Positions 18,674 through 63,974 of a stretch of 64,000 nt of DNA are shown here, piece by piece. This stretch comes from a candidate division FCPU426 bacterium (lineage in GTDB: Bacteria; Oederibacteriota; Muellerivitia; Muellerivitales; Muellerivitaceae): assembly GCA_963771075.1 (NCBI GenBank), contig CAVYSE010000018.1:32001-96000 (forward strand), written 5' to 3'. The position numbers and the translations under genes were made by a program. Under the pieces are notes generated by a model. The model saw only the letters and a program-made list of their open reading frames with translations. It made no database searches and was not told the DNA's origin. Position 1 is the first letter of the stretch; each line of letters begins with the position of its first letter.

Positions 18674-18945
18674 GGGGGGTACCTGCCTCGAACCCACAAG
18701 GTGAGAGGGAAGGTTTGGTGATCCCCATTGCTACTGCAATGGGGGGTACCTGCCTCGAACCCACAAGGTGAGAGGGAAGGTTTGGTGATCCCCATTGCTA
18801 CTGCAATGGGGGGTACCTGCCTCGAACCCACAAGGTGAGAGGGAAGGTTTGGTGATCCCCATTGCTACTGCAATGGGGGTACCTGCCTCGAACCCACAAG
18901 GTGAGAGGCAAGGTTTGGTGATCCCCATTGCAGTAGCAATGGGGG
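18674..18945. repeat. Tandem array of four ~67-bp units each ending in a REP-like palindrome
   Basis: Units start 18674, 18741, 18808, 18875; near-identical; palindrome CCCCATTGCTACTGCAATGGGG. Confidence 0.95.
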
Positions 18946-18974
18946 CCGAATTCCAGCTGATTGAGGAGTGTTAG

Positions 18975-48102: not shown

Positions 48103-50548
48103 AAAGTGAAATAGTTTTTATTCATTTACTTAACGACTTCTCAGGAAGCCCCAAGATACTCAGAGAAGTCATAGATATCGTTGGTAAAAGACAGATAAAC
48201 GCGAAACTTTATATCGGTAGTTCAGGCGAAGGGGTTCTTTCCAATTGCGGCATTCCGACGACCCGTTACTGGTATCACAGATCCAGGCATAGGATACTAA
48301 CCCTTTTCAACTATTTCTTTAGTCAAATCATCCTCTTCCATAAGCTTCTTTTTGATTGTTCCATGGACAAGAATTCGGTCATCTATGTGAATACCTTGCT
48401 CCCATTCGGCGCGGCACTTTATGGACGATTGACGGGAAAGAAGATCATCTATCACATTCACGAGATATCCATCACCCCCTCAACGCTCAAATACCTGTTA
48501 ACTGGCATTGCCAGGAAAACATCCTCTTTAAATCTATATGTATCAAACGCACATATGACGGCCTTGCCTCTCCCTGGGCCCCCTACAAAACGTGTATACA
48601 ACTCGCTCGATACTAATTTCATTCAGAACGCCATCAAAAACCCTTACACAGTTCAGTACGAAGGGAAATTCAATGTATTACTTATTGCCTCATTACGTGA
48701 TTACAAAGGAATTCCCGAACTTCTTGAATTAGCTTCTGGTTTACTCGCGAATAGCGATATTCATTTTCATCTTGTGGTGAATGACGACGAGCATCATATC
48801 GATCAGTATTTTTCAGGGAAGCCGGTTCCTTCGAACTTGACGGTTCATCCCCGGACTTCGGATACAACCCCTTTTTATCGAAAAGCCAATCTGGTATTGA
48901 ACCTTTCACGAGTTGACGAGTGGGTGGAAACATTCGGGTTAACGGTTCTTGAGGCCATGACATTCGGAATACCGGTCATCGTTCCCCCGGTGGGAGGCCC
49001 AGCGGAGCTTGTCAAAGATGGAGTCCAGGGTTTCCAAGTTGATTCACGTGATTCCGTGCTATTGAAAGAAAAAGTGCTGTTACTTTACAAAGACAAGCCC
49101 TTGTGCCAGAGGATGTCCTCTGCCGGTCGATCACGATCCGCAGAATTTTCACCGGAAGTTTTCACTAAAAATATCCTCCCGGCCATTGATGAGGTTCGAG
49201 AAAACATGGCGGATAATAACCGGCTAAAATTGGCCATTCTTGGAACCCGGGGAATCCCGGCCCGCTATGGAGGTTTTGAGACCTTCGCCGAGGAATTGGC
49301 CCAACGACTCGTTCCTAAAGGAATAGAAGTTACGGTTTTCTGTGAATCCGGAAACGGTCCTCAACTCATTGAATACAAAGGGATCAAGCTCGTATATCTT
49401 CCCGCTTCCAAATTGGGCCCTTTAACGACGATCCTTTTTGATCTTCGCTGTCTCTGGCATGCTCGCAGATCCTTTGACTTGGTCTACATGCTGGGTTATG
49501 GAGCCGCTCCCTTTTGCGTCATTCCCAGGTTCTGGGGCAGTAGGGTTTGGATCAACGTGGATGGGATCGAATGGGCAAGGGCCAAATGGAATGCCTTCGC
49601 AAAGTTTTACTTCAAGCTCATGGAACTCTTTTCTTTGTGGACCGCCGATCGGATCATTGCCGATGCGGAAGGTATCAAGGCCCATCTTCGGTCCCGCCAC
49701 CACTGGTTGCCTCCCTGCACCGTGATCCCCTATGGAGCGCCCGTTATTGACGTGGCGCCGGACAAAAACCTGCTCAAGGAATGGGATCTGAACCCCCGTG
49801 ACTACTATCTGGTGGTCGCGCGCCTGGAGCCCGAAAACTACATTCTGGAAATTATCGAAGGATATAAAAGTGCCGATACTTCCACTCCTCTGGTGGTGGT
49901 CGGCGATCATCAAGCCAACACCGCCTATATGAAGAAGCTTTTGGCATTAGCCTGTCCAAATATCCGGTTCATCGGTGGGGTTTACGATAAGGTCAAACTT
50001 CAGGCCCTTCGTTTTCATTCCGAAACCTATTTCCACGGGCATTCCGCAGGTGGGACCAATCCTTCCCTCCTGGAGGCTTTGGGCTGTGGCAACCTCGTCA
50101 TCGCTCACGACAATCCGTTCAATCGCGAAGTGGCTGGTGATCTTGGTTTTTATTTCAGGTCAAAAGAGGATATTCCGGAATTACTCAAAAAAATCGGCTC
50201 CATTCCCCCCGATAAGAGGGAAAGTCTTGCCCAGCAAGCCAAGTCCCGGATGAGGGATAAGTATGATTGGGACCAAATCGCGGAAAGATACAAAGCGCTT
50301 TTGGAAGAGGACAAGGACGTAAAACAAAAAACGAACCGTCCTTTTCTGAAAATTGCTTATTTTTGTTTGGCGCTCTTGATTCTCCAGGTTAGTTATTTCC
50401 TCTCTATTATTTTTTCAACTTCGATCCTCCCCGATAAACCCGGCGCAGTTGTCGTATTTGGTGGTGGAAGCAACCGGGCGGTGGAAGCCGTCCAAGTGGC
50501 CAAGACAACCAATAGTACAAACCTGGTCGTTTCGGATAATCAGCACAC
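48099..50548 (+). CDS. GT4-GT4 fusion plus start of a YdcF/DUF218-like domain, cut by the mini-element
   Basis: ETFGLTVLEAM; second GT begins MADNN..GTRGIPARYGGFETF at 49206; TM then AVVVFGGG..R; frame runs into the element to a stop at 50708. Confidence 0.8.
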
Positions 50549-50983
50549 AACAATGGGGTCAAGTCTTCATTTTATAGTAACTATTCCAACCGCTTCTTCC
50601 TGCGCTAATGTTGTAAAATGGGCCATCGCGTATCCATTGTTCACGAGGTGGGCTAAAAGCACAAACACCTGGATGTGCCCAAATACCAGAAACAGGCAAT
50701 TAAATTGAAACCGGAAGAGGTACTGGCGAAAGTAGCTAAAATCCATGGGGAAAAGTCGGGTGAGATATTGAAGGCTGGAAAAAGGGAGTCGGAAGCACGG
50801 GACGCGGCCATTTATTTGATGAAACGGAAATCGGGGATGAGTTCAATGGAAATTGGGGAAAAGATGGGCGTGGGTGCCAGCGCGGTGGGGAATCGGATAG
50901 CGATGGTAAAGAAGCGGATGGAGGGAGAGACACGGTTCAAGGCTCGGATAGATAATATAAAATGAAGACTTGACCCCATTGTT
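50549..50983. mobile_element. 435-bp mini-element with 28-bp perfect terminal inverted repeats, copy 1
   Basis: AACAATGGGGTCAAGTCTTCATTTTATA at both ends, inverted; identical copy at 63540-63974. Confidence 0.92.
50675..50965 (+). CDS. DnaA-C-terminal-like HTH fragment
   Basis: EARDAAIYLM..SGMS..EIG..MG..SAV pattern, seen at the C-terminus of some Y1/RAYT-like transposases; stop lies inside the right TIR. Confidence 0.65.
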   Translation: MPKYQKQAIKLKPEEVLAKVAKIHGEKSGEILKAGKRESEARDAAIYLMKRKSGMSSMEIGEKMGVGASAVGNRIAMVKKRMEGETRFKARIDNIK

Positions 50984-50984
50984 C

Positions 50985-51541
50985 TTTATTTGGAGCTATG
51001 ACTTTGTGGCGGATCGAACGAGTGATACCCGGTCGTTGAGGTTTTTGACGGTGATAGACGAGTTCACGAGGGAGAACTTGGCTTTACCAGTACAGAGAAA
51101 GTTTACGGCAGATGACGTGCAGGCGACGCTGGCGGAGCTGTTCATCCAACGCGGAGTACCGGAATACATCCGCTCCGACAACGGCCCGGAGTTCACCGCG
51201 GAGAGGGTGAAGGATTGGCTGCCAAAGGTGGGAGTGAAGACCCTGTTCATTGAACCGGGAAGCCCTTGGGAGAACGGCTACAACGAGAGCTTCAACGGAA
51301 AATTCAGGGATGAACTGCTGAACGGCGAGTTGTTCGATACGGTGTGGGAAGCACGAGTGATCGCCGAAAGGTGGAGGAAGGAGTACAATACAAAACGGCC
51401 ACACAGTTCTTTGGGGTACCGGCCACCGGCCCCGGAGGCGGTCGCCATGGGGCCCAACAGCAACTTCAGGCCCATGTCGACCTCAACAAACTGAGTCTAT
51501 GGTGTGAGATTAGCGGTGGTACTAAAACCGGGGGCAGGTCA
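50985..51541 (+). pseudogene. IS3-family remnant: integrase core and right end only
   Basis: WSYDFV, IRSDNGPEF, PGSPWENGYNESFNG, RPHSSLGY; end ...GGGGCAGGTCA; 5' part missing. Confidence 0.88.
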
Positions 51542-52864
51542 ACAGACCATTGGCTTGGTACATTCAAAGCTTGTTCCTCGACTTGATGTCTCGGAACAGA
51601 AGTATCAGGCCACCTTTTCAAAGAAGTCCGTGATGGATCGATGGGATAAGGGACTTCAAGCGTTGATCGGCTGACATTTGTTGGGCGAATTATTCCTCGC
51701 CAACCCCTTTGGAAAACTTTTTCCCTCCCGGATGCGTTTTTTTCTTGAAGGCCCGGCTTCCTCCGGTTTATTTTCACATCAATTGAAAGGGTACCCGATG
51801 ACTTGTGGTCATCGGGCTAGGGGAGAACCCAAGACAGCACTTGGCGGATAACTGTTAGCTTATCGCTAACGGCTACCAGCAAACCGCTAATGGCTATATT
51901 TGGAGGTTCCCCCATGGAATCAGCACAATCACCCGTTGGTCCTTCGGACCAGATGCCCTATCCCCTCAACCAAATCGTGATGGTTCCCATCGACGACCTG
52001 TGCGACCCGCCTTGGGACCCCCGGCCCGTCGTGGATGAGGGTCCCCTCCAGCTTCTCGTGGACTATATCGCTGGGGAAGGTTACACCCCTCCCATCCTGG
52101 CTTGGGTGGGGGATGGCCGAAAACCCTGGCCGGTGCTTTCCGGCAAACGCCGCCGATTGGCAAATCAACGGTTGGGGAAAACCGAAATCGCGACGATCTT
52201 CTTGGATTGCTCCGAAGAACGGGCAAAAGACCTGACTCAATCCACCAACGAGGACGATAAGCCCTATTGGCTGGGTTCTTGTATCCAAACCGAAACCAGG
52301 TTAGCGGAATTTGGTGAAAATTATGAGATCCTTGGAAAACGGATTGGAAAGACAAAATCCTGGGTTTCGAGAGCGATTTCGTTAACGAAATTACTTAGCA
52401 ATACTTCTCGGAAGATGATTTTCGACCAATATTTAAACGCAGTTGCGAATCGCAACTCAGTTCCAAAAAAAGAAGAAAATCAGGAAACGATCAGCGTAAA
52501 AAAGGGAAGAAAGGCGCAAAAAGAGGAAAATTTAGACGACAAACAATGGTTTTTGTTGGAATCGGTCGCTCTTGAATTATTGCCCCTTTTTAGGGGCCGG
52601 CCGGTGATAGAAGCCGTCCGGCTCGCCGATCAGGTGGTACCTGTCGTTCTTTCCCAAGAATTGGACGCGAAGGGCGTCGCCAAATTGGTTGGTATGTTGA
52701 ACAAGGGCCACGAGATATCCGACTTTATGGAACTCAACCTGAAGGGACCTGCGAAATCCCAATCCGGGGGCGCCACGGCAAAGGTTCATCATGCCGAGGG
52801 GGCTGATCCCGGTAATGGATCAGCACACCCAAAGAGTGACCCTCGGCTTGAGGCCTCGGGTCAG
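51542..52864 (+). repeat. 1.32-kb direct duplication, partner at 62213-63535
   Basis: Constant offset 10671 bp; about 8 substitutions by eye. Confidence 0.95.
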
Positions 52865-55438
52865 GGGGCTGATCCTGGTAAGGGATCAGCACACCCAAAG
52901 AGTGACCCTCGGCTTGAGGCCTCGGGCCAGGGGGCTGATCCGCCAATTGAATCAGCACACCCAAAGAGTATGGCTCAGATTGAGGCTGAGCCACAGGGGG
53001 CTGGCCCTGAGGTGATTGTGGAGGAAGTCAAGAAGCCCACCTTAACCTTTTTTCAAAGGCTGAAATTATTCTGGCAGGGCATCCTCCAAGCATTTCGGAA
53101 CTTGCGGCAACCGCCTCCCGGGGAAACATCCCCCGCGAAATCGGACCCAACGAATCATGGTTCCGGTACAGGCGACCCTCCCAACGGGACCCAACCTGGA
53201 CCCACGGCCCAGGGGGCCGATTCTAGTATTGAATCGGCACTCCCCAAGAGTGGGCCGCAGCATGTGGCCGCGGCCCAGGGGGCCGATTCTAGTATTGAAT
53301 CGGCACTCCCCAAGAGTGGGCCGCAGCATGTGGCCGCGGCCCAGGGGGCCGATTCTAGTATTGAATCGGCACTCCCCAAGAGTGGGCCGCAGCATGTGGC
53401 CGCGGCCCAGGGGGCCGATTCTAGTATTGAATCGGCACTCCCCAAGAGTGGGCCGCAGCATGTGGCCACGGCCCAGGGGGCCGATTCTAGTATTGAATCG
53501 GCACTCCCCAAGAGTGGGCCGCAGCATGTGGCCACGGCCCAGGGGGTAAGACCAAGGGCTTCGCTAAAGGCTAATAGCCAACCGCCAAAGACTGTCTTTT
53601 CCGATTTTCTGGCTGACTTGGCCGAGGTCTTCCAAGGCTTTACCGCCGCCGGGGTGAAGGACTTTTTAGGCAAAATACCTGAGAACAAGTGGCAGGCCGT
53701 AGGTTATATCCTCGAAAAGGGCCTAAAAGGCGGGATCAAGTGCCTGGGGCATCTGCTTGTGGTGCTTGTGAAACATTTCTTTAAGCTGACGGGAAAGGGC
53801 ATCCACAACATCTCCAAATCCGTGGCCGCATGGGTCATGCCCATTCATTCCAGTAGCGGGTCCAGGTCCCACGGCACCCGAACCGGCCAGAATCCCCTCT
53901 TATATTTAGGCCACTGGGTGGTCTATGGGTTCATCACCTTGGCTTGCTATTCGATCGTGCTGGGGTCCATCGCGAACTTTATTCCGGTCATCGGACCCTG
54001 GATAAGGTCCGGGGAATGGACCTTCCTCCATCTTTTGCCCCAGGTGCCCCTTTGGCTGTTGGGTAAGATTTTACAACATCTTTGGATCTCCTTGGGTCTG
54101 TGGCTCATGCTTCTTTGGATGATCCACCGGGCCTTCAAGCCGGGTTTGGGGTGGCTCATCACTTTGTTTGTTCTTTTTCTCGCCGCCTGGCATTTCAAGG
54201 GTTGGGTGATGGATCAGTTACACCTTGATTTGCCGGCCTTCGAACCCAAGACGTCGGCCGCGGCCCAGGTCTCTGGCCCGAAGTCACAAACTGAGGGCGT
54301 CGGTTCTTCTTTAGAACCGACACACCCAAACCGTGGGCCTAATCTTGAAGATTCGGCCCAGGGGCATGATTTGAGAATACCCATTACCGAAAAAGGAATG
54401 GGTACCCCTCCACCTTTGTCGGCCCTTTCAGCCCCGCCGCCCACGGCGATTGTTTCCTCCCCACCCCCATCGGCGAAACCTAAACCTGCCGCAAAACTTA
54501 AGACCCCGCCTAAAAAGGTCTTAGTTGAAAGCCAAAGCGCAACACTTAAAACCGAGAACTCGGTCGCTCCCGTGGCTCTCCCCGGCGCACCCGCCACGGG
54601 GGAAGAGGCGGCGTGGGTGGCCGAGCTCATCCCCGCTTTTCACACGCCCTTCCTGGTGAAGCCTTTGGATCTTCAGCCTGACCCAACCATTTCCCCCGTC
54701 ATGGTCCAGAAAAGGCTTTCCGAAATCCAGGACCCCGAAAGGTTCCGCGTTTACGTGGGGCATGACCGCCAAACGATTAAATCCATGAACGTGGACGATG
54801 GCGGAATGGACCTATTCTTCAACGGCTCCTTCGGCGGGCTTTTGGGCGACTCATCCAGCTTTCGGTTCTTCTGGGAAGACGTGCAGGGCATCCGCCTGGC
54901 GACGGTGGAGGTTTCGGGCGACAAGCCGCAAACGCTTTGCTTTTGCGCGCTGGAAGTGAAGACCAAGAAAAAAATGGCGGCCTTCGAATGCGCGCCGGGG
55001 GACGTGGCCCATTTGGTGTCGGCCCTGGCGGCGCAGTTCAAAAGCTCCACGAAAAGGGAGGTATCGGTGGCGCCCCTGCCTTACCTGAACCAGGGTATGT
55101 GGCTGGGCGGGCAGAACCAGGTGGATGGGATGTGGAAGGAAAGCCCTGCGGGGCGGTCGCAAGAGGTGAAACTGCGCTTTACCCCGGCGGACTGGAAAAG
55201 GCCCACGACCGGCGGCGGAATCCGCCTGGGGGATTACCTTTGGAGCCTGGGCGTGAACCAGGATAACCAAACCGGGAAGGAAGAATTGCTCAGGCAGTTG
55301 GGCGGAACGGCCTCGGGACCGTCGACCCTTTTCGTGGTGGGCCCGGACGATTGGCGCAAGGCCCAGAATGCCGAGACCGGCCCCGAAAACGACCCCTTCA
55401 ACCCGCCCCGCAGGGCGGTGCGCCTGCCGGCGCCGTGA
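51890..55438 (+). CDS. ParB/Spo0J-like N-domain + HTH, 22-aa repeats, TM cluster, unknown C-terminal domain
   Basis: VPIDDL..PR..L..L...I...G...PI..SGKRRRLA; IGKTKSWVSR HTH; several hydrophobic helices in the C-terminal half. Confidence 0.75.
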   Translation: MAIFGGSPMESAQSPVGPSDQMPYPLNQIVMVPIDDLCDPPWDPRPVVDEGPLQLLVDYIAGEGYTPPILAWVGDGRKPWPVLSGKRRRLANQRLGKTEIATIFLDCSEERAKDLTQSTNEDDKPYWLGSCIQTETRLAEFGENYEILGKRIGKTKSWVSRAISLTKLLSNTSRKMIFDQYLNAVANRNSVPKKEENQETISVKKGRKAQKEENLDDKQWFLLESVALELLPLFRGRPVIEAVRLADQVVPVVLSQELDAKGVAKLVGMLNKGHEISDFMELNLKGPAKSQSGGATAKVHHAEGADPGNGSAHPKSDPRLEASGQGADPGKGSAHPKSDPRLEASGQGADPPIESAHPKSMAQIEAEPQGAGPEVIVEEVKKPTLTFFQRLKLFWQGILQAFRNLRQPPPGETSPAKSDPTNHGSGTGDPPNGTQPGPTAQGADSSIESALPKSGPQHVAAAQGADSSIESALPKSGPQHVAAAQGADSSIESALPKSGPQHVAAAQGADSSIESALPKSGPQHVATAQGADSSIESALPKSGPQHVATAQGVRPRASLKANSQPPKTVFSDFLADLAEVFQGFTAAGVKDFLGKIPENKWQAVGYILEKGLKGGIKCLGHLLVVLVKHFFKLTGKGIHNISKSVAAWVMPIHSSSGSRSHGTRTGQNPLLYLGHWVVYGFITLACYSIVLGSIANFIPVIGPWIRSGEWTFLHLLPQVPLWLLGKILQHLWISLGLWLMLLWMIHRAFKPGLGWLITLFVLFLAAWHFKGWVMDQLHLDLPAFEPKTSAAAQVSGPKSQTEGVGSSLEPTHPNRGPNLEDSAQGHDLRIPITEKGMGTPPPLSALSAPPPTAIVSSPPPSAKPKPAAKLKTPPKKVLVESQSATLKTENSVAPVALPGAPATGEEAAWVAELIPAFHTPFLVKPLDLQPDPTISPVMVQKRLSEIQDPERFRVYVGHDRQTIKSMNVDDGGMDLFFNGSFGGLLGDSSSFRFFWEDVQGIRLATVEVSGDKPQTLCFCALEVKTKKKMAAFECAPGDVAHLVSALAAQFKSSTKREVSVAPLPYLNQGMWLGGQNQVDGMWKESPAGRSQEVKLRFTPADWKRPTTGGGIRLGDYLWSLGVNQDNQTGKEELLRQLGGTASGPSTLFVVGPDDWRKAQNAETGPENDPFNPPRRAVRLPAP
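52798..53541 (+). repeat. In-frame 66-bp double-hairpin repeats (3 + 5 units; solo unit at about 54295-54360)
   Basis: Units start 52798, 52864, 52930 and 53212, 53278, 53344, 53410, 53476. Confidence 0.92.
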
Positions 55439-55604
55439 GGATTTCCGGGGCCAGGCCTCCAATTTCCATTTTTGGGGCCCCGGCCCGGAGGGGTGCTGTC
55501 AGGCAAGACGCATCGAAGCCCCCGTCGAAACCATCGGTATTGTCACAAGATGAGCGATTGGGTGTATAATCGGAAAGTAGGAATAAGTAGGAAAGTGAGA
55601 AAAT

Positions 55605-55865
55605 ATGGCATCCGTTCGAATCCGTGAAAAAGGCCAAATGACCCTGCCGAATTCCCTTCGGCGGGAAATGGGTTGGAGTTCCGAATATTTCGTCAATGCC
55701 GTCAAGGTGGGGGATTCGGTCCTGTTGATCCCCAAACCCGTCGTGGGGGACGCTCTCGCCCGCAAGGCGGCCCGGACCATGAAAACCCAGGGAATCACCC
55801 TCAGGGACCTATTGGGTGAACTGAAAAAAGCCAGGAAAGATTACTCCAAAAAAGATGCCCGCTAA
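55605..55865 (+). CDS. AbrB/MazE/SpoVT-family antitoxin
   Basis: IREKGQMTLP..LRR.MG. Confidence 0.88.
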   Translation: MASVRIREKGQMTLPNSLRREMGWSSEYFVNAVKVGDSVLLIPKPVVGDALARKAARTMKTQGITLRDLLGELKKARKDYSKKDAR

Positions 55866-56301
55866 CCGGTTTTTGAGGGTTTTCCTCGACGCCAGCGTTT
55901 GGGTGGCAGGGATCGTTTCCGAGAAGGGCGCCGCGCGGGAAATTCTCCGCTTGACGGAGGCGGGTCTTTTGGAAGTGACAGTATCAGAACAGGTGATCGT
56001 GGAGTTGGACCGTGTGATGAACGCGAAATTTCCGGAGCTTGTGCCGGAGGTACGTGGGTTTCTCAAGGCGGTCCGGCCCCGGGCGGTGGATGATCCGACG
56101 GAACAGGAAATCCGGGCCTTTCGGAGTGTCCTGGAGGCGGGGGATGCAAGCATCCTCGCGGCGGCGGAACGGGAAAAAGTGGATTACCTGGTGACCTGGG
56201 ACCGAAATGATTTTCTTAAGGGAAACGCGCAAAAACTATCTAAATGCCGGATCACCGACCCGGGTGATTTTTTAAGGGCTTTCCGGGAATACATAGGGTA
56301 A
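55855..56301 (+). CDS. PIN-domain (VapC-like) toxin
   Basis: VFLDASV, D..ILAAA, YLVTWD..DF; overlaps the antitoxin. Confidence 0.88.
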   Translation: MPANRFLRVFLDASVWVAGIVSEKGAAREILRLTEAGLLEVTVSEQVIVELDRVMNAKFPELVPEVRGFLKAVRPRAVDDPTEQEIRAFRSVLEAGDASILAAAEREKVDYLVTWDRNDFLKGNAQKLSKCRITDPGDFLRAFREYIG

Positions 56302-56530
56302 ATGACCAACCTGAAGGGATCAGATTTCAAGCGACGCGGGGGAGTATCTGAAAATAGGGAATTAGCCCAGGGCCCTTTTGGGTCACTCACTTAACACCCT
56401 TTTCACCGCCAAGAACGCCAAGAACACCTAAATGGGAATCGATGGGCGGTGATAAAAATACGCGTGGAAAAAGACCGGCGATTGGAGAAGATGGTCCATA
56501 AGTGTCAAGTGTTGTCCTGACCCCATTTTC

Positions 56531-60629: not shown

Positions 60630-60818
60630 ATGCGTTTTTTAGCTGATGAGAATTTTCCCGGTTCTGTTGTCGAAACCCTGAGGTTTGAAGGGCATGATGT
60701 TTTTTGGGCCAGGGTGGATTCCCCGGGGACAAAGGACAGGAGCCTCCTTTCCCGCGCGGAGGATGAGGGCCGGATCCTTTGGCCTGATGATGTCGCGCCT
60801 GATTCTTGTATGGAATAG
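60630..60818 (+). pseudogene. DUF5615 PIN-like toxin, truncated
   Basis: MRFLADEN..L...GHDV..EGRIL then an abrupt switch to WPDDVA; the expected TxDKDF motif is absent. Confidence 0.8.
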
Positions 60819-60984
60819 GCACGCCCAATCTTGCGCCTCGGCTTGAAGACCTCGGCGCGGGTCCATCATCGTGAGTTTTCAAACAGTTGGTGCGAATGAT
60901 TAAAAAAGTTCTTGTGCTAAATCATTACGGATTCGACTCCCTATGGTCGCTCACCGCAGGCTATTTCTTTGAGGTGGATTAAGA

Positions 60985-62197: not shown

Positions 62198-62560
62198 TTG
62201 GGACCCTCCATCACAGACCATTGGCTTGGTACATTCAAAGCTTGTTCCTCGACTTGATGTCTCGGAACAGAAGTATCAGGCCACCTTTTCAAAGAAGTCC
62301 GTGATGGATCGATGGGATAAGGGACTTCAAGCGTTGATCGGCTGACATTTGTTGGGCGAATTATTCCTCGCCAACCCCTTTGGAAAACTTTTTCCCTCCC
62401 GGATGCGTTTTTTTCTTGAAGGCCCGGCTTCCTCCGGTTTATTTTCACATCAATTGAAAGGGTACCCGATGACTTGTGGTCATCGGGCTAGGGGAGAACC
62501 CAAGACAGCACTTGGCGGATAACTGTTAGCTTTTCGCTAACGGCTACCAGCAAACCGCTA

Positions 62561-63535
62561 ATGGCTATATTTGGAGGTTCCCCCATGGAATCAGCACAAT
62601 CACCCGTTGGTCCTTCGGACCAAATGCCCTATCCCCTCAACCAAATCGTGATGGTTCCCATCGACGACCTGTGCGACCCGCCTTGGGACCCCCGGCCCGT
62701 CGTGGATGAGGGTCCCCTCCAGCTTCTCGTGGACTATATCGCTGGGGAAGGTTACACCCCTCCCATCCTGGCTTGGGTGGGGAATGGCCGAAAACCCTGG
62801 CCGGTGCTTTCCGGCAAACGCCGCCGATTGGCAAATCAGCGGTTGGGGAAAACCGAAATCGCGACGATCTTCTTGGATTGCTCCGAAGAACGGGCAAAAG
62901 ACCTCACTCAATCCACCAACGAGGACGATAAGCCCTACTGGCTGGGTTCTTGTATCCAAACCGAAACCAGGTTAGCGGAATTTGGTGAAAACTATGAGAT
63001 CCTTGGAAAACGGATTGGAAAGACAAAATTCTGGGTTTCGAGAGCGATTTCGTTAACGAAATTACTTAGCAATACTTCTCGGAAGATGATTTTCGACCAA
63101 TATTTAAACGCAGTTGCGAATCGCAACTCAGTTCCAAAAAAAGAAGAAAATCAGGAAACGATCAGCGTAAAAAAGGGAAGAAAGGCGCAAAAAGAGGAAA
63201 ATTTAGACGACAAACAATGGTTTTTGTTGGAATCGGTCGCTCTTGAATTATTGCCCCTTTTTAGGGGCCGGCCGGTGATAGAAGCCGTCCGGCTCGCCGA
63301 TCAGGTGGTACCTGTCGTTCTTTCCCAAGAATTGGACGCGAAGGGCGTCGCCAAATTGGTTGGTATGTTGAACAAGGGCCACGAGATATCCGACTTTATG
63401 GAACTCAACCTGAAGGGACCTGCGAAATCCCAATCCGGGGGCGCCACGGCAAAGGTTCATCATGCCGAGGGGGCTGATCCCGGTAATGGATCAGCACACC
63501 CAAAGAGTGACCCTCGGCTTGAGGCCTCGGGTCAG
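62561..63535 (+). pseudogene. Truncated duplicate of the ParB-like gene
   Basis: Near-identical to 51890-52864; cut by mini-element copy 2. Confidence 0.88.
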
Positions 63536-63539
63536 CAGC

Positions 63540-63974
63540 AACAATGGGGTCAAGTCTTCATTTTATAGTAACTATTCCAACCGCTTCTTCCTGCGCTAAT
63601 GTTGTAAAATGGGCCATCGCGTATCCATTGTTCACGAGGTGGGCTAAAAGCACAAACACCTGGATGTGCCCAAATACCAGAAACAGGCAATTAAATTGAA
63701 ACCGGAAGAGGTACTGGCGAAAGTAGCTAAAATCCATGGGGAAAAGTCGGGTGAGATATTGAAGGCTGGAAAAAGGGAGTCGGAAGCACGGGACGCGGCC
63801 ATTTATTTGATGAAACGGAAATCGGGGATGAGTTCAATGGAAATTGGGGAAAAGATGGGCGTGGGTGCCAGCGCGGTGGGGAATCGGATAGCGATGGTAA
63901 AGAAGCGGATGGAGGGAGAGACACGGTTCAAGGCTCGGATAGATAATATAAAATGAAGACTTGACCCCATTGTT
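63540..63974. mobile_element. 435-bp mini-element, copy 2 (HTH ORF at 63666-63956)
   Basis: Identical to 50549-50983, offset 12991. Confidence 0.92.

Follow-up and report, generated by a model that had tools for sequence, protein, structure and literature searches.

The stretch of DNA considered here, 64,000 nt from a candidate division FCPU426 bacterium (the window; the genome that holds it is termed G000), was analysed together with an open reading frame (ORF) at 51890-55438, the host gene, and the short repeat units that lie inside it. The host protein combines a ParB/Noc-like N-terminal and helix-turn-helix (HTH) region with unit-bearing linkers, hydrophobic membrane-like segments and a C-terminal domain without a Pfam match. 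Its match to ParB_N is weak (E 0.0024, below cut-off); for the N-terminal 263 residues, modelled with a pLDDT (predicted local distance difference test score) of 83, the best structural matches were Noc and ParB (E 1e-9). An original prediction, made from the letters of the window, had described nine repeats with two hairpins each and had proposed an in-frame palindromic mobile unit, a processed array of structured RNA, or cruciform sites for the ParB-like protein. The nine units are found at the place it gave, all in frame within the host gene: three at 52802-52999, five at 53216-53545 and one at 54299-54364. The stems and loops that it quoted agree with the sequence. Compared to its linker motif, units 4-8 have one extra C.

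Fold of the units and covariation

The fold consists, in this order, of hairpin A (about 9 bp, with a variable loop), a short linker, the helix P2 (3 bp), a 6-nt 5' bulge, the helix P3 (6 bp), a 2x2 internal loop TC/TC, the helix P4 (3 bp) and a 5-nt loop. Both hairpins of the two-hairpin fold proposed earlier are real, but the third helix, P2, had been missed. RNAalifold, applied to a sequence-selected alignment, returned hairpin B and this additional helix, in which linker columns 32-34 are paired with columns 69-71 directly after hairpin B. Hairpin B itself had been taken as a stem of about 11 bp; the hairpin exists, but it is not a plain stem, since it contains the conserved 2x2 internal loop and sits inside P2, which closes over the 6-nt one-sided bulge. 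What had been listed as a separate G-run is the 3' arm of P2 and varies together with the linker. TC/TC occupies the internal loop in 89 of 114 distinct units, and the G of the 5-nt loop is retained in 59 of 60 units. Hairpin A (71.9% paired) varies between 21 and 32 nt in length and is therefore less well aligned. To within 1-2 nt, the units begin with the first base of hairpin A and end with the base after P2, and mean pairwise identity among units is about 52%. Folded as DNA, units 1, 4 and 9 outperformed every one of 200 shuffles on both strands (z −3.4 to −7.3).

The nine units had been put forward as evidence for covariation. They comprise six distinct sequences (units 4-6 are identical, as are units 7 and 8), and for this reason the window alone provides thin evidence. 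As had been suggested, a covariance model was built and the genome was searched with it; covariation was significant and dispersed copies were found. For the alignment we used 60 of 80 distinct units with a locus, excluding near-duplicate, truncated, nested and degenerate ones. In these 60 units 78.5% of the cells were paired compared to 61.7% in shuffles, and the covariation score was 0.493, versus 0.208 for shuffled and at most 0.172 for slid partners. Pair counts lay above all 500 shuffles on four of five measures (27/500 for the fifth). On a tree, with relatedness modelled, 81 compensatory changes were counted, while 7.5 ± 2.7 were expected (200 simulations, maximum 15). The top nine column pairs by mutual information are all helix pairs; six structure pairs, and no other pair, exceeded the simulated maximum.

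Watson-Crick pairing reached 87.6% in the 22 coding units (null 60.8%) and 85.6% in the 38 non-coding units (null 55.9%). As both subsets pair equally, codons are not the cause of the covariation, which persists when they are considered. A second set of 75 units was collected independently from a sequence pattern alone, which set the P2 columns only as Y/R or N. For the two testable pairs of P2, 74 of these 75 units (null 55.6, max 64) and 64 of 75 (null 31.9, max 43) were paired, and the P3 pairs were formed in 60-67 of 75. The claim that selection acts on nucleic-acid structure is thus borne out by covariation throughout the genome that is of the same strength in non-coding units. The second outcome that would have spoken against the original prediction, homologues that keep the peptide without the pairing, did not materialise either: in the closest homologue found, both array sites are empty and a single folded unit is present in the C-terminal linker.

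Distribution of the units and the host gene family

An iterated search of the genome with a sequence hidden Markov model (HMM) gave 107 matches, 94 of them at E<0.01. The covariance model, with 150 of 1219 candidates scored, gave at least 114 matches in G000 at E≤0.01, and it matched all 24 family genomes (1-71 matches each) and none of 16 genomes outside the family. A degenerate pattern matched 8 loci among GTDB genomes (three Candidatus Firestonebacteria) and 79 metagenome loci, with 0 matches in viral contigs. The unit is therefore not the feature of one gene for which it had been taken; its genome- and family-wide occurrence had been overlooked. A 63-bp tandem array with about 5.5 copies of a divergent member that has a GGC/GCC P2 (L017:4240-4600) was missed by both the HMM and the covariance model.

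The genomic context was evaluated for 104 near-full-length units of G000, the best of the matches, after 10 that were weaker or partial had been set aside. Sixty units are located outside ORFs of at least 250 amino acids (three of these in broken host-gene paralogues), and 44 inside ORFs, 26 in sense and 18 in antisense orientation, in four strand/frame classes with unrelated peptides. Copies are genic and intergenic, have either orientation, and occur singly, head-to-tail or nested. In relatives, units are found in frame in unrelated genes, e.g., for a CusA-like pump, a PMT-family transferase, QueC and a polysaccharide export protein. That a 22-residue peptide repeat is under selection at the protein level and the pairing is incidental could be considered in view of the nine units of the window, which share one frame and encode similar peptides. 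The location of most copies outside long ORFs, the unrelated peptides of the four classes and the equal pairing of non-coding copies refute this explanation, to which we give next to no credence.

In-frame hosts beyond the ParB-type family (L062, L045, L054, L046, L077, L070, L110:2857-3756) mostly look like membrane or exported proteins, a bias that may reflect tolerance of linkers or supercoiling from membrane-coupled expression. Intergenic units seem often to lie between type II toxin-antitoxin, Fic and DUF4143 genes (L017, which corresponds to G000 C24:153801-160500, L016, L014, L042, L049, L053, L055 and L078). A 683-bp segment that bears a PIN gene and begins in a unit is present on both C18 and C24. 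A block of genes including a unit-bearing ORF, with identical N-terminal translations in two genera (L010, G000 C8:24194-26229, and L216 in G004), suggests recent horizontal transfer of unit-bearing DNA. At L015:1-97 a unit adjoins sequence resembling a tRNA 5' end at the edge of a contig, with a 7-nt repeat on either side; ARAGORN found no tRNA gene there because the contig ends, and the tRNA was not confirmed. Near-identical group II introns of 2 kb (G000 C3:151064-153052 and about 10 other sites) lie at the edge of another short palindrome family that is unrelated to the unit. The unit was accordingly rejected as a target of this multicopy intron, which homes into the different palindrome.

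The host gene belongs to a mosaic family composed of ParB/HTH, membrane and C-terminal domains, with about 20 paralogous loci or fragments in G000. This family holds 41 of the 44 units inside ORFs, by our own count through at least 16 separate insertions, and 53 of the 104 units are in or within 500 bp of its genes, which make up 1.5% of the genome. An ORF matching the host family was found at 22 of the 79 metagenome loci, some of which overlap. No close relative of the host gene was confirmed in metagenomes. Copy numbers of units and host-family genes are correlated over the 24 genomes (Spearman 0.58; kin are not independent). Eight of the 24 genomes, with 1-35 units, gave no match except chromosomal ParB to three host-family profiles (metagenome-assembled genomes, 80-99% complete); a 99%-complete genome in 5 contigs is among these host-negative carriers.

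These numbers raise the question whether the units serve the membrane-anchored ParB/HTH family. They could be sites that its proteins bind or cruciform sites, or joints at which recombination shuffles the N-terminal, membrane and C-terminal modules of the family. Besides the enrichment and the correlation, the Noc/ParB-like fold predicted for the N-terminal region would fit, and so would the homology blocks between paralogues, which often end at units. Insertion into shared sequence would also give block ends at units, however, the stem sequences appear too variable for one HTH site, and host genes carry another short palindrome beside a conserved motif. Together with the eight genomes in which nothing beyond chromosomal ParB was found, the free variation of the stems weakly disfavours the ParB binding or cruciform sites that had been proposed, and we consider a service to this family improbable as an explanation of the units, while some functional link between the two is possible. 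We read the host family as the main sink for units, being multicopy, having tolerant linkers and being self-reinforcing because units insert into units.

Several observations concern the host family itself. In ParB-like paralogues (G000 C3:3731, C11:541782, C23:109661 and the cluster C20:35800-36500) the short palindrome just mentioned, which is variable and unrelated to the unit, lies within the coding sequence just 5' of a conserved AATAAGGG, and is a candidate binding site of the host family. Members of the membrane family that lack ParB (L158, L136, L184, L146, L125, L045, L107:15082-16833) have a different, helical N-terminal domain, which showed no Pfam match in L158, the one scanned; strong matches to such members occur in 7 of the 24 family genomes. 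The region 55430-55445 and paralogues on C1, C3, C5, C9, C11, C13, C18, C21 and C27 are alike until a few bases past the stop codon and then continue into several different flanks. Public sequencing runs show loose ends at the same point. This breakpoint could be the fixed end of a mobile unit.

Mobility, strand and possible mechanism

Comparison of paralogues revealed sites with and without a unit. The C1 paralogue has exactly one extra 66-nt unit compared to that on C7, the flanks on either side being 98-99% identical. The two paralogues on C28 show a difference of 135 nt, made up of a unit inserted into the apical loop of another and of a third unit within the bulge of the inserted one, and further nested units were found at other loci. 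In a CusA-like gene a unit is part of a longer insert in one genome, and none is present in G000. Tandem arrays have periods of 66, 66 and 69 in ORFs (66 and 69 in relatives), all multiples of 3, compared to 67, 65 and 63 between genes. The exact presence/absence pairs, the nesting and the head-to-tail arrays indicate mobility, and among the options of the original prediction the in-frame palindromic mobile unit is the best.

The units bear no terminal inverted repeats (TIRs), and target duplication was not evident: direct repeats of at least 4 nt were present at 12 of 103 units, with no excess over a flank-swap null of 10.1 ± 2.6. Single copies have junction repeats of 4-14 nt in differing registers. 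On the 5' side a pyrimidine is found at −1 in 81 of 103 units and G at −2 in 52 of 103, with no fixed word and with the ends uncertain by 1-2 nt. In a 20-kb region with a coupling-protein-like gene and ArdC, all ten units (10/10) are co-oriented. This fits strand-specific insertion, and also co-orientation to transcription. At L110-L112, where ten co-oriented units are present, about 15 kb with ArdC and toxin-antitoxin genes are common to G014 and G024, and in G014 follow genes for ParA, ParB and a coupling-protein-like protein.

The non-canonical pairs of the B stem are informative with regard to the strand. On the plus strand C.A exceeds G.T by 40 to 11 at inner pairs and by 38 to 0 at the end pair of P3, with the same direction in the independent set. 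If the minus strand is read, TC/TC becomes tandem G.A, and C.A becomes G.T. From the conserved TC/TC mismatch and the C.A excess we infer that the minus strand is the one that is folded and recognised.

In our opinion the units probably represent a dispersed element without genes, of which the fold and not the sequence is conserved, and which is likely mobile and likely copied as folded single-stranded DNA by an enzyme of the host lineage. The part of this explanation that we regard as slightly more probable still is a mobile unit under selection for its fold. A trans-acting single-strand nuclease or recombinase would read the fold, probably on the minus strand. Our first guess is a 'peel-and-paste' enzyme of the HUH/Y1 type, with P2 acting like a guide that pairs with the cut end; by analogy, an HUH-type single-strand mechanism has, in our estimation, slightly less than an even chance. 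Copies that keep the fold would propagate, and this would be the selection behind the compensatory changes, while template switching is probably the source of many of the paired substitutions. Insertions in genes would survive if they are a multiple of 3, have a stop-free frame and fall into a disordered linker. New insertions may be drawn to existing units and other hairpins, and the multicopy membrane-anchored ParB/HTH genes would thereby become a hotspot. The peptide repeat is, in this view, a by-product.

A number of observations weigh against this explanation. The energy of DNA folding barely separates the strands, the minus strand being more stable in 60 of 114 units with 17 ties, and strand is not biased relative to local GC skew (40 versus 33). 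Template switching alone is described as able to skew base-pair frequencies (10.1101/2021.04.15.439925). In relatives, 28 of 37 intergenic units are co-oriented with their flanking genes, so that the plus strand, and not the better-paired minus strand, is more often transcribed. The junctions vary, and the unit ends are placed no better than to 1-2 nt; in four public runs, reads on 53560-56500 contained neither an indel nor a joint at unit 9. Two genera have the copy downstream of secA in common; some copies therefore persist vertically and not all are recent. Finally, no mobilising enzyme was found in the searches made. Three IS200-like copies in G000 (3 of 20 Y1 matches were read) have their own, unrelated ends. 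At 27 Y1 loci in four relatives, a unit was present within 1.5 kb at 4 and bracketing units at 0, and G021, with 60 units, gave no PF01797 match. The best match to the integron integrase model TIGR02249 reached 41.8 bits compared to a cut-off of 265, which no control genome reached either, and PF04986 for the IS91 transposase gave no match, but neither did the positive control.

Other searches had similar outcomes. Y1 transposases are common, but they are not bracketed by units and are lacking from one element-rich genome, and were rejected as partner. IS200-like ends in G000, G018 and G014 are unrelated to the units; elements with TnpB only were not searched for. Eight PF00589 genes are XerC-, phage- or RIT-like according to neighbours and sequence. 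No recurrent transposase or nuclease was detected near units at 38 loci of relatives (78 of 159 ORFs scanned) or at the 79 metagenome loci (76 of 183 cluster representatives scanned). An attC-like circle test, based on pairing of the linker with the upstream flank, gave values of 0.35-0.45, equal to the control. IS91 inserts next to CTTG/GTTC, and several nested units are inserted after CTT(G) in the loop of another unit, most junctions being otherwise.

Alternatively, hairpins could be driven by mutation without selection, with template switching repairing stems, slippage generating arrays, and gene conversion or duplication of host genes spreading the copies. Template switching is reported to create and fix stems in a single event (10.1101/2021.04.15.439925), changes in the stem arms come in blocks, in ParB-type genes many copies are shared through duplication, and the internal loop is closed in some units (about 34 of 228 loop cells are Watson-Crick). 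The TC/TC loop of most units, the kept bulge and loop G, and a bulge-offset 3-bp P2 with 95-99% pairing are left unexplained by such a process, as are whole-unit insertions in unrelated genes and intergenic sites across 24 genomes, and we judge it quite improbable.

We likewise see little prospect for the view that the fold acts as RNA, be it in a small RNA processed from the arrays or in mRNA, where it could stabilise the message, terminate transcription or bind a protein. The co-orientation of intergenic units with flanking genes in relatives, and of 17 of 21 intergenic clusters in G000 (hand count), is in line with it. A single RNA contig of 234 nt and depth 2.3 spans unit 9, but it is longer than the unit, is the sole piece of that run, has no assigned strand and may be DNA, and is too weak to use. 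No RNA product of 66 nt was seen in public runs on 53560-56500, and Rfam gave five matches over 50500-56500 at E 1.3-4.2, all far under the gathering threshold and none on the unit. Moreover, 18 of the 44 in-gene copies are antisense, most copies are single, many are nested or interrupted, and the C.A pairs fall on the more often transcribed strand. The processed RNA array of the original prediction is also not supported by the in-gene copies, which occur on both strands, nor by the copies in general, which are mostly single or intergenic. The unit directly after secA (L006:375-446, L215:1501-1571) would also agree with an RNA role. It is orthologous in two genera, has the minus strand on the mRNA side and largely keeps its fold via G.T-type changes, and has possibly been domesticated.

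Going beyond the mobile element favoured here, one can conceive of a minimal mobile DNA defined by shape only: a self-guiding P2, co-varying with its own end, would set the cut site for a single-strand recombinase distinct from both RAYT and integron integrase, and the same sites would be the joints that shuffle ParB/HTH modules and move toxin-antitoxin cassettes, integron-like without an array. We regard this as speculative and rather unlikely.

The features of the window are compiled in Table 1. In a duplication of 1,323 bp (51542-52864 = 62213-63535, 99.4%) the ParB-like gene is preceded by a copy of the 3' end of a glycosyltransferase gene. A Y1 transposase with flanking TIRs is represented by two identical remnants of 441 bp (50555-50980 and 63546-63971; TIRs of the GGGGTCA type, only the C-terminal HTH left), one of which breaks a gene of the glycosyltransferase operon, and the other cuts the second copy of the ParB-like gene at the P2 arm of unit 1; further copies are present on C21 and just outside the window. 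A lone stem resembling hairpin B, at 51793-51822 upstream of the host gene, is followed by AGGGGAGAA, and the same purine motif is found ahead of several paralogues.

Table 1. Repeat units and host gene in the window (positions in nt of the window).
Feature	Position	Strand
Intergenic array, four units of the same family, period 67 (not divisible by 3), lying upstream of a queC-like gene	18680..18949	-
Unit with degenerate hairpin A, 5' of the host gene; the duplication begins inside it	51541..51602	+
Host gene, 1182-aa protein	51890..55438	+
Unit 1: hairpin A; linker including the 5' arm of P2; bulge of 6 nt; hairpin B, internal loop TC/TC; 3' arm of P2	52802..52867	+
Unit 2 (array 1, period 66)	52868..52933	+
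Unit 3: hairpin B sequence differs; one C.A pair in hairpin A	52934..52999	+
Units 4-6, identical, head-to-tail (array 2, period 66); internal loop GC/GC in place of TC/TC	53216..53413	+
Units 7-8: single substitution relative to units 4-6, giving a C.A pair	53414..53545	+
Unit 9, single, in the linker past the membrane segments; top covariance model score of the genome, 78.4 bits (member of the training set)	54299..54364	+
Intergenic unit	60798..60863	+
Second copy of the upstream unit, within the duplicated segment	62206..62273	+
Unit 1 copy within the second, truncated gene copy; TIR-flanked transposase remnant cuts at the P2 3' arm	63473..63535	+

Comparison with known mobile and palindromic elements

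The open question to which these data relate is how short palindromic repeats spread and how they add new peptide to proteins. Such repeats include repetitive extragenic palindromes (REPs), Rickettsia palindromic elements (RPEs), palindrome-associated transposable elements (PATEs) and double-hairpin elements (DHEs). A description of the present element was not found in open-access PMC or bioRxiv, and the unit family is apparently an undescribed, real and well-supported structured repeat that is specific to this bacterial family. It supplies exact empty and filled sites. With several hundred natural variants of about 52% identity that share one fold, the rules of recognition (P2, the bulge, TC/TC and the loop G) can be read directly. 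The host genes provide a whole protein family with linkers largely built of layered unit insertions. Identification of the enzyme would yield a single-strand DNA integrase that is guided by structure, acts on a substrate of about 66 nt and makes few demands on its target.

Integron attC arrays are rich in toxin-antitoxin genes, and the attC R boxes read RYYYAAC/GTTRRRY. Like attC sites, the units are often located beside toxin-antitoxin genes. They further share with attC, as described (10.1101/2022.09.11.507474), little sequence conservation, recognition of the fold of one strand, an imperfect hairpin with an asymmetric unpaired part and a similar size. In contrast to attC, no integron integrase was found, such boxes are lacking, the units do not occur as one per cassette in one orientation, and many are inside genes. 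Without terminal inverted repeats and target duplication, they also differ from miniature transposable elements with inverted repeats (MITEs).

The non-autonomous REPs, their mosaic arrangements (bacterial interspersed mosaic elements, BIMEs) and doublets (REPINs), which are linked with REP-associated tyrosine transposases (RAYTs, TnpA-REP), are similar in that they form strand-specific single-stranded hairpins and occur in clusters (PMC8266576, PMC3733652); for our unit the strand specificity is inferred. Group 2 REPs are described as having a conserved stem mismatch that is required for activity (PMC8266576, PMC3733652), and the TC/TC of 89 of 114 units is such a conserved mismatch. However, column frequencies of the parsed units show no GTAG or CGTC tag at either end, and the two unequal hairpins are arranged directly, whereas REP doublets are described as inverted. 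Among the loci examined no RAYT gene is flanked by units, and the RAYT-like remnants of the window are of the TIRtron type with GGGGTCA-type TIRs. The assignments to REP/RAYT, attC or MITE were thus each rejected for failing a defining test, and no parent insertion sequence (IS) ties the unit to PATEs. Dissemination of REPs is itself called poorly understood (PMC8266576).

RPEs and intragenic REPs are likewise short palindromic repeats found between genes and, in frame, in unrelated genes, to which they add peptide, and the mobiliser of RPEs is described as unclear (PMC10969869, PMC3733652). RPE-1, as described, has about 150 bp and a conserved peptide (PMC10969869, PMC3733652), whereas the present unit has about 66 nt, low identity, a bulged fold of three helices and four strand/frame classes, and nests in itself. 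DHEs are small, G+C-rich, gene-less and potentially mobile, with two hairpins and an enzyme that is not known (PMC10085805). The DHEs described are located in fungal mitochondria, mainly between genes or in RNA genes, and a closing helix such as P2 does not feature in that description (PMC10085805).

With PATEs the units share, according to the published accounts (PMC3119063, PMC8266576), the lack of TIRs and target duplication, a length too short to code, near-terminal palindromes, heterogeneity and nested insertions. In contrast to PATEs of the IS200/IS605 type, a parent IS with these ends was not found, a fixed target tetranucleotide is not apparent with ends placed to 1-2 nt, and head-to-tail arrays and many in-frame copies occur. 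The mechanism of IS200/IS605 and TnpA-REP provides the analogy for the steps proposed above: there, a single strand is recognised strand-specifically in its folded form, with irregularities in the stem, and the cleavage site is paired with a guide beside the palindrome (PMC8266576). The P2 helix of the unit resembles this guide as described there.

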